From a virus, in the IMG/VR virus record IMGVR_UViG_3300017917_003893, positions 79,337-143,336 of that record: a DNA stretch of 64,000 nucleotides. The stretch is one strand, 5' to 3'. Of this stretch, positions 24,773 through 59,932 are shown piece by piece (positions within the stretch are counted from its first letter, which is position 1; every line of letters starts with the position of its first letter). Under the pieces are notes generated by a model that searched no databases, was not told the DNA's origin, and saw only the letters and a program-made list of their open reading frames with translations. The position numbers and the translations under genes were made by a program.

Positions 24773-25417
24773 ATGAATAAAATTGAAATAGAAGGTAAAT
24801 TAAATAAATCTTGGGTTAATAGTCTATTAGCTGAGGGTTATACAACATATGATATTGTATCAAACTATGAAATAGATGAAGATGTTATTTTAGAGTGTTA
24901 TGAGTTTTTAGATAAAAATGTAATAATACAAGGTCTTAATTTATCAGAAGATTTTATAAACAAGTCTATTGAAATACAATATTTAGACTTAGAAGATATA
25001 AAGGAACTAAGTATGTCTACTTATGCTAATTTGTCTCCGGAATTTATATCTAAATATAAAGAGTATATCAACTGGAATAGAATGATTCTCTACATTTCAA
25101 CTCAGTCAAATTCATTTGATGAATATGTTGAGGTTATTAATGATAAAGACTTATGGCAAGTTATTAGTGCTAATGATTTACCATTAGAGTTTATAAGAGA
25201 ATATAAAGATAAATTAGATTGGTCTTATTTATCAATGGTTAAGTGTTTTACAGATGAGGAAAAAGAAGAGTTTGGTGATTATATTCTTACACCTGTACAA
25301 AAAGAAATAAGCGATGAGTCATTTATTAATCAAGATGATTTAAAATTCTCAGATAAGATGACTGATGAAGAGTTAGAAGATTTAATTAATGAAATCTCAA
25401 AACATATAGGAAAGTAA
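24773..25417 (+). CDS. Hypothetical protein with Trp-containing repeats (LSxEFIxxYKDxxxW)
   Basis: LSPEFISKYKEYINW and LPLEFIREYKDKLDW. Confidence 0.65.
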   Translation: MNKIEIEGKLNKSWVNSLLAEGYTTYDIVSNYEIDEDVILECYEFLDKNVIIQGLNLSEDFINKSIEIQYLDLEDIKELSMSTYANLSPEFISKYKEYINWNRMILYISTQSNSFDEYVEVINDKDLWQVISANDLPLEFIREYKDKLDWSYLSMVKCFTDEEKEEFGDYILTPVQKEISDESFINQDDLKFSDKMTDEELEDLINEISKHIGK

Positions 25418-25418
25418 A

Positions 25419-25577
25419 ATGTCAAATTATCAATTAAAAATTTTAGAAAAGTTAGATGATGAGGATTGGAATTATCCAAGCGTGGTAAAGGTTGTAATGA
25501 AACCTAAATCTGCTATAAACAATCCACCTTTGAAAAAAACGAAATTTTCGAGGTTGATATATACTGAACAAAAATAA
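25419..25577 (+). CDS. Possible small protein (52 aa)
   Basis: ATG 1 nt after upstream stop; MSNYQLKILEKLDDEDW... Confidence 0.35.
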   Translation: MSNYQLKILEKLDDEDWNYPSVVKVVMKPKSAINNPPLKKTKFSRLIYTEQK

Positions 25578-25613
25578 TTAAAAATATTTTTTACAAGATT
25601 TAAAACTTTTTCA

Positions 25614-25621
25614 TATCTTTG
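25614..25621 (+). promoter_or_regulatory. TAnnTTTG promoter driving the ncRNA/Ro60 locus
   Basis: TATCTTTG ~27 nt upstream of the first structured RNA. Confidence 0.65.
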
Positions 25622-25647
25622 TATAAAATAAAAACAAATAAAAAAAC

Positions 25648-25712
25648 CCAGTAGCGAATTGAAGTGTTACTTCGTATGGATTGAAAAAACACACTTTAAT
25701 GATTTACTCTGG
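25648..25712 (+). ncRNA. Y-RNA-like ncRNA 1 (minimal putative Ro60-binding module)
   Basis: ccag/ctgg stem; TAGCGA/GATTTACT internal loop; 10-bp attgaagtgt/acactttaat stem; TACTTCG; same architecture as the next element; upstream of Ro60. Confidence 0.75.
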
Positions 25713-25730
25713 TCAATATATAGGCTAAAC

Positions 25731-25996
25731 CGCAAGCATAGCGATAGTTTGAGATACTTCGATAAATATCAATTAAACTATGACAGCCAAAGTGCCGAGC
25801 TAACAGCAAAGCTACCTTTCAATCTCCAATTGGCTGATTGATAAAAAGGTGAAAAAGTTCGAAAAGTACCTCGTAAAGGGCTAAGGAATTCAGAAACTTC
25901 CTTTAAATAAAGAACTGAGTGAGATAGTCACTTCAACCATCGGCAAAGTTTCGGGAGAATTCTTTGTAACGCTTAGGCTAAATTTTCTTGCTTGCG
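25731..25996 (+). ncRNA. Y-RNA-like ncRNA 2 (same module plus ~210-nt structured domain)
   Basis: cgcaagca/tgcttgcg stem; TAGCGA/AATTTTCT loop; tagtttgag/cttaggcta stem; TACTTCG; many internal helices. Confidence 0.8.
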
Positions 25997-26008
25997 ATTA
26001 ACATATAT

Positions 26009-26048
26009 GACCAGATTAACTTTACTGTTAGTCTGGTCTTTTTTTTTT
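26009..26048 (+). terminator. Strong intrinsic terminator (possible attenuator) between the ncRNAs and Ro60
   Basis: gaccagattaac-tttact-gttagtctggtc followed by T10. Confidence 0.85.
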
Positions 26049-26058
26049 GAACAAACTC

Positions 26059-26129
26059 GGACAAGCTCGTGTATCTCGAAAGAGTGAACGGTTTCTAGAG
26101 CCAAGGTGGTATCCCACGAGCCTCTGTCC
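26059..26129 (+). ncRNA. Structured RNA element in the Ro60 leader
   Basis: ggaca/tgtcc and gctcgtg/cacgagc stems enclosing ctc-GAAA-gag and ggttt/gagcc hairpins; GC-rich in AT-rich background. Confidence 0.55.
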
Positions 26130-26164
26130 CTTAAATAGAAATTAATAAAAATTAAAACGATATT

Positions 26165-27616
26165 ATGTCAAAATTTAACACAACAATGCCAAAGGCAAAA
26201 ACTCTTACTGAAAACCTAGCAGGTGGTCAAGCTTACTCTCAATCAAATGAGTTAGCTTTAGTTTCTCTTCTTTTAACATCTTTTGTTAATGATCAGTTCT
26301 ATAGGAATGCTCAAACGACTCTTGATGAATTGAGAAGCCTTATCACTAAGGTTAAAGATAAAGAATTTGTTGCTAAGGCGGCTATATTTGCTCGTGACCG
26401 TTTTGGTATGAGAAGTATTACTCATGCTCTTGCTGGTGAATTAACTTCACAACTATCGGGTGCGGAGTGGGGTAAAAACTTCTACGACAAAGTAGTTGTT
26501 CGTGTTGATGATATGACTGAAATCATGTCATACTACTTGGCTTATAAGACATCTAAAGATAGTCCTAAGTTTCCAAACTCTTTGAAGAAGGGTTTTGCTA
26601 AGGCTTTTGATAAGTTTGATGGTTATCAACTTGCTAAGTACAAAGGTGATAACAAAGAAGTTAAACTTGTTGACCTTGTTAACATTGTTCACCCAGTTCC
26701 AACTGAAAGAAACAAATCTGCTCTTGAGTCACTTGTTAAAGGTGAACTAAAGAACACTCAAACTTGGGAAGCTAAACTTTCACAAGCAGGGCAAATGGCT
26801 GAATCTGAAGAAGATTTGGCTCAACTGAAGGCTGATGCTTGGCAAGAACTTATCTCTACAAGAAAGATTGGTTACTTTGCTCTTCTTAGAAACTTGAGAA
26901 ATATCATCACTCAATCACCATCTGCTGTTAAGTCAGCATGTGAGTTGTTAGTTGATGAGAGAATGATTAAGAATTCAAGAGTTCTTCCATTCCGTTTCTC
27001 AACTGCATATGAAGAAATCTCTAAGTTAGGTTCTTCTAAAGAAGTTCGTGATGTTCTTGTTGCTATTAACCAAGCATTGGATATCTCAGTATGTAACGTT
27101 CCTAAGTTTGACGGTGAAACACTTGTTGTTATGGACGTTTCTGGTTCAATGAGTGGTAAACCATCTGAGATTGCTTCTTTGTTTGGTGCTATTTTAGCTA
27201 AAGTTAATAACTGTGATGTTATGACTTTCTCTACTGATGCTCAATATAAGCAATACAATCCAATGGATTCAGTGTTGACTATTAGAGGTTCTTTTAGATA
27301 CTCTGGTGGTGGTACAAACTTTAAGTCTATCTTTCAGAAGGCTAACAAAAAGTATGACAGAGTAATTATCTTGTCAGATATGCAAGGTTGGATGGGGTAC
27401 ACTACACCATCTTCTGAGTTTGCTCAGTACAAAAAGAAATACAATGCTAATCCATTTGTATATTCTTGGGACCTTGCTGGATTGGGTACTTTACAGTTCC
27501 CAGAACAAAATGTCTTTGCTTTGGCTGGCTTCAGTGATAAAGTATTTGACATCATGAAAATGATGGAGTTAGACAAGAAGGCTCTTTACAATGAGATTAA
27601 AGCTATACAGCTTTAA
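26165..27616 (+). CDS. Ro60/Rsr-like TROVE + vWA RNA-binding protein
   Basis: NLAGGQAY, YQLAKY, TWE, ALLRNLRNI, SRVLPFRF; MIDAS DVSGSM; GGT; ILSDMQ. Confidence 0.93.
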   Translation: MSKFNTTMPKAKTLTENLAGGQAYSQSNELALVSLLLTSFVNDQFYRNAQTTLDELRSLITKVKDKEFVAKAAIFARDRFGMRSITHALAGELTSQLSGAEWGKNFYDKVVVRVDDMTEIMSYYLAYKTSKDSPKFPNSLKKGFAKAFDKFDGYQLAKYKGDNKEVKLVDLVNIVHPVPTERNKSALESLVKGELKNTQTWEAKLSQAGQMAESEEDLAQLKADAWQELISTRKIGYFALLRNLRNIITQSPSAVKSACELLVDERMIKNSRVLPFRFSTAYEEISKLGSSKEVRDVLVAINQALDISVCNVPKFDGETLVVMDVSGSMSGKPSEIASLFGAILAKVNNCDVMTFSTDAQYKQYNPMDSVLTIRGSFRYSGGGTNFKSIFQKANKKYDRVIILSDMQGWMGYTTPSSEFAQYKKKYNANPFVYSWDLAGLGTLQFPEQNVFALAGFSDKVFDIMKMMELDKKALYNEIKAIQL

Positions 27617-28499: not shown

Positions 28500-29270
28500 T
28501 TATTTCCAGATTTTTTCTAAATCAATTTTAGATGTTATTTCTATAACTTTGTTTCCTGTTTTAAGAGAATATTTTTGAATAGGTTGAAATAGTTTTACAA
28601 TTTTTTTAATTTTTTTACTATCTTCTATATCTATATCTTCGTTAAAAATTTGAATTAAGTTTTCTATTTCATTAAAAGTTATACTTCTTTTATTGCCTAA
28701 AAAGAATATAAAATCATAACTATAATCGTTGTATTTGATTGCATCATGTTCATCTGATTTACTTATTAAATAGTTAGTTATGCAGTTCTCAACACCAATT
28801 GATGGTAAACTAAACTTAAATCCATCTATTGTAAATTCTTTTTTAGATTCATTATAGTTTTTTTTCATCTCTTCATTTATAATAAAATAGTTAAAATAAT
28901 TAGATGAGAATTCAATTGCATTTTCTTTACCGATTTCATCATCAAAATATGTCAAACTTACAGCTTTTCCTTTTGTAAATCTTACAATCTCTAAAAATAA
29001 AAATACAACATCTATACTTTTTAAATCATTGAATTCATAACCCTTTGAGAATATAGAGTTTTTTTCAACTACCTTTTTTAGTTTATTGATTATTGAACCT
29101 AAATCATCTTTAATATAATCATGTTCATATTCTATTATATCTTCTATATTGGCTTTTTTTATTGTAATTTCAAAATCATCATTGTAAAAAAGTCCTTGCG
29201 ATGGTAAAGATTTAACATCAACTACCTTTTGAAGATTTAATAACCCTTTTAATAAATTTACTAAGCTCAT
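28500..29270 (-). CDS. Putative baseplate hub / gp26-like structural protein
   Basis: LPSQGLFY motif typical of T4 gp26-like proteins; late box upstream. Confidence 0.5.
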   Translation of the reverse strand: MSLVNLLKGLLNLQKVVDVKSLPSQGLFYNDDFEITIKKANIEDIIEYEHDYIKDDLGSIINKLKKVVEKNSIFSKGYEFNDLKSIDVVFLFLEIVRFTKGKAVSLTYFDDEIGKENAIEFSSNYFNYFIINEEMKKNYNESKKEFTIDGFKFSLPSIGVENCITNYLISKSDEHDAIKYNDYSYDFIFFLGNKRSITFNEIENLIQIFNEDIDIEDSKKIKKIVKLFQPIQKYSLKTGNKVIEITSKIDLEKIWK

Positions 29271-59847: not shown

Positions 59848-59919
59848 GGTCGGGTGACCGAGTGTTTTAGGTGAAGGCCTGCAAAGCCTTTTACGGTGGT
59901 TAGAATCCATCCCCGACCT
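59848..59919 (+). tRNA. tRNA-Cys (GCA)
   Basis: Acceptor ggtcggg/cccgacc; anticodon arm aaggc-ctGCAaa-gcctt; T arm ggtgg-ttagaat-ccatc; U discriminator; CCA not encoded. Confidence 0.9.
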
Positions 59920-59932
59920 CTAATTTTATTTA

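Follow-up and report, generated by a model that had tools for sequence, protein, structure and literature searches.

A conserved 210-nt structured RNA domain in the loop of a predicted Ro60-docking Y module of huge phages

Y RNAs are thought to be two-part adaptors, and in those of bacteria and phages the second part known to date is either a tRNA mimic or a small loop. In the huge-phage clade of the locus analyzed here, some of whose contigs are 476–634 kb long, a conserved 210-nt fold has taken its place. The window, a 64,000-nt stretch of viral DNA, derives from a 143-kb IMG/VR record that CheckV rates as 25% complete. The promoter-like stretch, the two RNAs, the terminator, and the Ro60 gene described below lie on its + strand.

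The RNAs are located in a 745-nt non-coding gap (25420-26164) that separates a 214-aa ORF from a 483-aa ORF. The 483-aa ORF (26165..27616) is a Ro60 gene with TROVE and vWA domains. It matches Pfam TROVE at 7e-19, contains a Ro60-type vWA domain, matches PHROG 850 at 3e-43, and matches the Ro60 structure of Thermus phage phiLo (9L5Y/9KOP) over its full length at 5e-22. Linkage to Ro60 is found in all homologous loci. The gene order RNR, RNAs, Ro60, 256-aa ORF, and DNA methylase is kept in related contigs, and the RNR-RNAs-Ro60 part in dozens. Ro60 relatives of 69–94% identity reside on viral contigs, the longest of 483 kb, and of the deposited phages only an uncultured one of 634,780 bp is related. 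The neighboring ORFs at 24773-25417 and 28500-29270 gave no informative or RNA-related family, only a weak T4_baseplate match.

A promoter-like stretch (UUUAAAACUUUUU ... UAUAAAAU, 25599..25632) precedes the RNAs and is kept upstream of related loci. Its conservation suggests that it acts as a promoter; a sigma-70-type scan lists 25590-25629, with a count no higher than in shuffles. Next comes RNA1 (25648..25712), a minimal Y module defined by computed fold and conservation and composed sequentially of CCAG-UAGCGA-AUUGAAGUGU-UACUUCG-16-nt loop-ACACUUUAAU-GAUUUACU-CUGG. The RNA1 module is present in every related locus, where its stems vary in sequence and retain pairing. As read from the sequence, the segment CUCUGGUC (25707..25714) is both the 3′ strand of the RNA1 lower stem and the 5′ strand of P1, the outer stem of RNA2. 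In P1, 25708-25714 pairs with 26009-26015 in 99.5% of cells of the homologue alignment described below (A2) and is almost invariant. An AU-rich extension of P1 has a lineage-dependent sequence and keeps its pairing in the upstream regions of related loci. The P1 3′ strand, GACCAGA, doubles as the 5′ strand of an intrinsic terminator (26009..26048) found by a terminator scan, which consists of a hairpin at 26009-26038 and a T10 run (−18.8 kcal/mol, z = −8.6). The Ro60 gene begins 117 nt past the terminator, on the same strand as the RNAs.

The Y module is present twice in the window, in RNA1 and in RNA2. RNAalifold places the 5′ half of the RNA2 module at 25731..25761 (lower stem CGCAAGCA, UAGCGA, upper stem UAGUUUGAG, and AUACUUCG) and the 3′ half at 25972..25996 (CUUAGGCUA, AAUUUUCU, and UGCUUGCG). 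The lower stem (25731-38/25989-96) is paired in 94% of A2 cells and shows compensatory changes (UG43/AU9). The upper stem (25745-53/25972-80), which RNAalifold recovered unaided, is paired in 99% (AU44/GC2/GU8) and closes the insert; it covaries from UAGUUUGAG/CUUAGGCUA to UAGAUUGAG/CUCAGUCUA. Across related loci, the module is repeated as lower stem, UAG(C/U)GA, upper stem, (G/A)UUACUUCG, loop, upper stem, AUUUNCU, and lower stem. The RNA1 loop spans 25675-25690, and the RNA2 loop spans 25762-25971. The two occupy equivalent sites, each flanked by UACUUCG on one side and by the upper-stem 3′ strand on the other. This agrees with the original prediction of a multi-helix domain in RNA2 where RNA1 has a loop of about 16 nt.

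The same loop carries other cargoes in relatives. A pattern scan with the RNA1 motif covered IMG/VR and one genome per prokaryote species. The module CAGUAGYGA...GUUACUUCG...UUUNCUCUG encloses permuted tRNA-like domains in four phages (L025, L021, L050, and L059) and in MAGs such as L173, L175, L180, L184, and L200. Five further phages carry the module (L029, L030, L039, L040, and L054). The MAG carriers are Saprospiraceae, Chitinophagales, Flavobacterium, other Bacteroidota, Verrucomicrobiales, and a few others, and the MAG copies lie directly upstream of Ro60 genes 46–60% identical to that of the window. The tRNA-like inserts of L025 and L021 match the Rfam YrlA family (RF02553) at 33–36 bits (E ~1e-5), which is below the gathering score of 69. 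The loop of the L040 module (L040:782-900) holds a complete tRNA of 58.9 bits. The proposal that RNA2 carries a distinct folded domain set into a Y-RNA module beside Ro60 is supported, and relatives have tRNA-like domains or whole tRNAs at the same point. The Y-module loop is a general docking site for RNA cargoes, holding nothing, a tRNA mimic, a whole tRNA, or the 210-nt domain. No YrlA above cut-off was found in three near-complete relatives (476, 483, and 634 kb), so the large-insert RNA replaces the usual tRNA-like Y RNA in these phages.

The region corresponding to the Ro60 motif reads UAGCGAA in RNA1, UAGCGAU in RNA2, and UAGUGA in many relatives. It resembles, and is not identical to, the published CGAA-containing contact motif GNCGAAN0-1G (Chen et al. 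2014, PMC4201824). That motif was also used to find the Yrl RNAs of phiLo (PMC12135203). By the module shared with tRNA-like RNAs next to other Ro60 genes, this resemblance, and the linkage to Ro60, the two RNA modules are predicted to be Y modules that dock on the phage Ro60.

Homologues of the large insert were collected with an RNA2-specific motif scan, which yielded 25 viral and 74 metagenome stretches. After removal of chance matches in coding sequences, 55 distinct complete RNA2 sequences were left, of which 54 were aligned (A2). The homologues come only from huge-phage or metagenome contigs, and the RNA2 motif is found in 0 of 91 loci from cellular genomes. Probing IMG/VR with the most conserved 15-mer of the insert returned nothing beyond RNA2 loci and chance matches. 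Thus, the domain is known only inside this Y module. A diverged group B (L011-L015 and L045) has the same layout with additional hairpins.

The comparative evidence identifies 25762-25971 as a conserved structured domain. The consensus structure and the three Y stems are paired in 92.0% of A2 cells; shuffled alignments average 85.8%, and none of 500 is as high. Slid controls, with the partner shifted by 1–3 columns, are paired in 30–44% of cells. Changes on both sides occur in 27 of 61 pairs, a count inflated by relatedness: much of the two-state variation reflects the split between groups A and C, and the pairs with multiple types are the reliable ones. The same split dominates the signal of a column-pair scan for extra long-range pairs, and in alignment A3 the two groups need different registers in hairpin Hf. 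The insert folds no more stably than shuffled sequence does (z = −0.45). The insert is non-coding. The only ORF is a 60-aa TTG frame (25659-25841) that is not conserved, and homologue indels are not in threes.

The consensus supports six hairpins, designated Hx, Hv, Hc, Hd, He, and Hf. Hx (25794..25812) has the form G-N-N ... N-N-C around GC[GACA]GC. Its pair 25795-25811 occurs as CG31/UA14/AU7/UG1, with one cell unpaired, and Hx is weak in the copy of the window, which has a C.A at 25796-25810. Hv (25813..25851) varies in sequence and length and is closed by UACC/GGUG. The closure pairs are CG33/UA12 (25816-25848) and CG43/UG6/UA5, and the inner stems have lineage-specific sequences that fold in every lineage. 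A near-invariant A-rich strand with GUYCG (AAAAAGUYCG; AAAAAGUUCGAAA) follows at 25852..25864; two candidate partners tried for it displayed no clear covariation.

Hc (25865..25882) is built from AGU-A-CC / GG-GCU with a loop of NCGUNAA. Its pairs include AU23/GC13/UA3 (25865-25882), AU24/GC13/GU2, and CG13/UG12/UA10/AU3 (25869-25879). Hd (25883..25903), AAGGAA/UUCCUU, is paired in 98% of cells and has pairs of AU30/CG9 and GC30/AU9. Hd and its linker (25904-25916) are missing in 13 sequences, for example L007, L008, and L033, and are therefore optional. The conserved strand UAAAUAAAGA lies between Hd and He; like AAAAAGUYCG and part of AUCGG, it falls outside the assigned helices. The stem of He (25917-25933), AGUGA/UCACU, contains the multi-type pair 25918-25932 (AU31/GC11/GU6/CG3) and forms, with its pseudoknot, the element 25917..25941. 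Hf (25942..25971) consists of GCAAAG ... CUUUGU with an inner UUC/GAA, followed by UAACG. Its pairs include CG40/UA6 and AU39/GC6/UG5 (25945-25965). An extension of Hf by C25941-G25971 was rejected, with 25 sequences paired and 29 unpaired; C25941 belongs to the pseudoknot.

The pseudoknot of He is H-type, conserved, and covarying, as read from the alignment. The He loop GAUAG (25923-25927) pairs with CCAUC (25937-25941) in 93% of A2 cells. The first pair is GC38/UA13 and the fifth is GC36/UA10/GU3/AU1. The fourth position is GU35/GC5/AU4, with an A.C in 8 sequences that include the lineage of the window; to be isosteric with G.U, this A.C would require a protonated A. Slid controls in which the He stem and the pseudoknot are counted together reach 18–56%. 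Group B retains the pseudoknot in other letters (GAUG/CAUC, GAAA/UUUC, and GAUGA/UCAUC).

Two further long-range pairings involve the Y module. In many members of group A, GCGAUAGUU, on the Ro60-motif side, can form 9 bp with AACUAUCGGC; since the window, L002, L003, and group C carry uncompensated changes, the pairing was discarded as a conserved helix. In 95% of cells, AGUY (25856-25859) can pair with GGCU (25976-25979) in the 3′ strand of the upper stem. The two sides alter jointly in group C (GGAU/GUCU); the pairing is compatible with the data and shows no independent covariation. From the sequences, it might represent another conformation, in competition with the upper stem, that would open the Y module.

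The original prediction had derived its helices from the letters of the window, and its model is close to the minimum-free-energy fold of the insert. All the motifs it quoted are present at the coordinates it gave: tgccga at 25793, tcggca at 25940, acctt..aaggt at 25814-25850, ttggctg at 25830-25836, cagccaa at 25784-25790, and ccaattgg at 25826-25833. Comparison of the homologues supports four of its hairpins and does not support its pseudoknot, its palindrome, or its closing helix as drawn. Compensatory changes in the 54 homologues confirm aaggaa/ttcctt as proposed, agt-cct/agg-gct in the form agt-cc/gg-gct, and gagtga/tcactt in the form agtga/tcact. In acctt-tcaatc/gattga-aaggt, the acc/ggt closure has compensatory changes and the inner stem is lineage-variable. 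The agttc/gaact helix is paired in 69% of cells, has frequent C.A mismatches, and is good only in near relatives of the window; its 3′ strand is deleted in 13 sequences, so the helix cannot form there. The closing helix tgccga/tcggca is paired in 62–91% of cells per sub-helix, mostly by invariant or wobble pairs, and overlaps the better-covarying Hx and Hf. Position 25795 pairs far better with 25811, with three pair types, positions 25944-25945 are part of Hf, and 38 of 54 sequences leave the central pair, 25797-25941, unpaired. The ttggct/agccaa pseudoknot is paired in 32% of cells. It occurs only in the window and L085 and is absent from L020, L002, and L084, and a 7-nt complement to the ttggctg loop arises in 6% of shuffles. 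The palindrome ccaattgg is not conserved and is missing even in L085 (CCAAUUUGG).

The structure so defined matches no Rfam family. Among 4227 Rfam models, ribozyme and intron cores included, no family reaches threshold near the insert. A search of 25400-26200 with permissive filters at E <= 10 gave only two noise matches, both outside the insert, and no YrlA, tRNA, or RNase P. ARAGORN detected no tRNA or tmRNA at the insert. The earlier statement that the domain could not be matched to tRNA, tmRNA, RNase P, or a group I core is upheld by these searches.

Several readings of the insert can be weighed against these results. The absence of a matching family tells against a self-cleaving or self-splicing ribozyme or intron in the Y RNA loop, which we regard as highly improbable even though the insert is large, structured, and pseudoknotted and its site also hosts processable tRNAs (L040). 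The insert has no ORF, given the unconserved 25659-25841 frame and indels that are not in threes, and optional parts such as Hd and the length of Hv typify scaffolds, not catalytic cores. Nothing observed suggests a ribozyme. That the insert imitates a host RNA (for example a piece of rRNA or RNase P, or a nuclease substrate) or serves as a decoy, and so occupies Ro60 or a host enzyme instead of recruiting one, is also quite improbable, if less so. In favor of such a role, GGUGAAAAAGUCCG is reminiscent of conserved regions of RNase P. A P4-like GUYCG/CGGC pairing is indeed present in 87% of cells. Only 3 of these are changed on both sides, leaving it almost without independent covariation, and GUCCG/CGGC overlaps and clashes with the covarying He pseudoknot and Hf. 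The permissive Rfam search of 25400-26200 described above (E <= 10) gave no family match, for RNase P or any other RNA, and the RNase P resemblance did not hold up; the P4-like pairing itself is compatible with the data. Mimicry as such has a precedent in this setting, in that the YrlA domain is itself a tRNA mimic (PMC4201824).

The whole upstream RNA might instead be a cis-acting leader in which controlled termination sets Ro60 expression and the insert is a sensor; Ro60 bound to RNA1 would favor termination. This is unlikely, though better placed than the decoy. Three mutually exclusive helices are possible: CCAG(UAG) at 25648 with CUCUGG at 25707 (the RNA1 lower stem), CUCUGGUC with GACCAGA at 26009 (P1, a candidate antiterminator), and GACCAGA with UCUGGUC at 26031 (the terminator). 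The strands CCAGUAG (25648-25654), CUCUGGUC (25707-25714), GACCAGA (26009-26015), and UCUGGUC (26031-26038) are invariant, the terminator loop varies, and the lineage-variable AU-rich extension of P1 keeps pairing. In most relatives about 30 nt separate the end of the terminator from the ATG, compared with 117 nt here, and no promoter-like site lies in the interval. However, the switch strands lie outside the insert, so the 210-nt domain is unexplained. L035 joins RNA1 directly to the same terminator, without RNA2, and the invariance of the strands gives no covariation. Attenuation may coexist with an effector role of the insert.

From the conserved fold and its setting, 25762-25971 probably serves as the effector module of a huge-phage Y RNA of unusual size. 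A single transcript from ~25640 to the terminator at 26048 would bear two putative Ro60-binding Y modules. The stem module, acting as in known Y RNAs, would attach the RNA to the phage Ro60. The 210-nt domain would hold the place that the tRNA mimic has in YrlA and would couple Ro60 to a partner protein or RNA of host or phage origin; alternatively, it could control access to the Ro60 cavity. RtcB and RNase PH/PNPase domains are absent from the three near-complete relatives (476, 483, and 634 kb), which points to a host factor or a phage protein of unknown family as the partner. The conserved A-rich strands might, speculatively, be protein landing sites or tertiary contacts. A more specific proposal, that a new RNA fold recruits a particular host factor, or an RNA such as tRNA, to the phage Ro60, is put forward tentatively and falls short of even odds in our estimation. 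If it is true, Y-RNA effector modules would fall into two classes, this one and the tRNA mimic, and huge phages would use a new Ro60 machine during infection. The literature searched contained no account of a Y RNA carrying a domain of this kind.

RNA2 can be compared with the characterized Y RNAs. Like RNA2, YrlA (RF02553; PMC4201824; bioRxiv 10.1101/312249) is adjacent to Ro60, has a stem of its 5′ and 3′ ends that carries a CGA(A)-type motif, and has a second module inserted in the loop at the equivalent point. YrlA-type RNAs from Bacteroidota-type MAGs and other phages share the module sequence CAGUAGYGA..GUUACUUCG..UUUNCUCUG. Unlike YrlA, RNA2 lacks T and D arms and a stem resembling an acceptor, and has instead the 210-nt insert with six hairpins and a pseudoknot. 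Its length of ~266–309 nt compares with 80–130 nt in characterized Y RNAs. RNA2 would also have in common with Yrn1 of Deinococcus radiodurans, in the Ro60-Y RNA-PNPase complex RYPER, and with Yrl1/Yrl2 of phiLo a Ro60-binding stem and an effector-binding part. In Yrn1/RYPER and the phiLo Yrl RNAs the effector part is a loop or small module, whereas that of RNA2 is a large conserved fold. The Ro60 and Y RNAs of phage phiLo can engage host PNPase (PMC12135203). The genomes of the phages related to the one studied here carry no PNPase-type gene. YrlB and the minimal Y RNAs of Yrn2 type were compared with RNA1, not with the 210-nt domain. The domain would provide a defined RNA bait for the partner coupled to Ro60 in these phages, and, as a compact, covariation-supported RNA domain with a pseudoknot, is suited to structural study.

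Several additional elements were observed at this locus and its relatives. In one subgroup (L001, L110, and L146), the 5′ linker of the insert (A2 columns ~95–135) holds an extra optional hairpin, UUGGUACUUUCGGGUUCCACCAA. The tRNA and tRNA-like modules of L040, L025, L050, L059, L021, L029, L030, L039, and L054 often form tandem arrays of 2–3 modules, and these arrays adjoin tRNA genes. Three MAG loci (L235, L183, and L243) encode YrlA-type RNAs with ~60–130-nt insertions in the acceptor-like hairpin, indicating that the Y module tolerates large cargo in some cellular RNAs too.

Upstream of the RNAs, a box at 25507-25570 (CUAUAAACAAUCCACCUUUGAAAAAAACGAAAUUUUCGAGGUUGAUAUAUAC) is conserved across the related loci without exception, including those with a different upstream gene. 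It contains an imperfect inverted repeat, CCACCUUUGAAAA / UUUUCGAGGUUG, both arms of which are altered together in L006 and L007. Judging by this pattern, the box could be a phage promoter or operator. Between the terminator and the Ro60 start codon lies a third, GC-richer element (26059-26129; −23.7 kcal/mol, z = −1.9), with the stems GGACA/UGUCC and GCUCGUG/CACGAGC and a CUCGAAAGAG hairpin. This element is missing in most relatives, and L015 and L019 have a different one at the same place. Elsewhere in the window, a tRNA-Cys (GCA) gene is located at 59848-59920 (57.5 bits).
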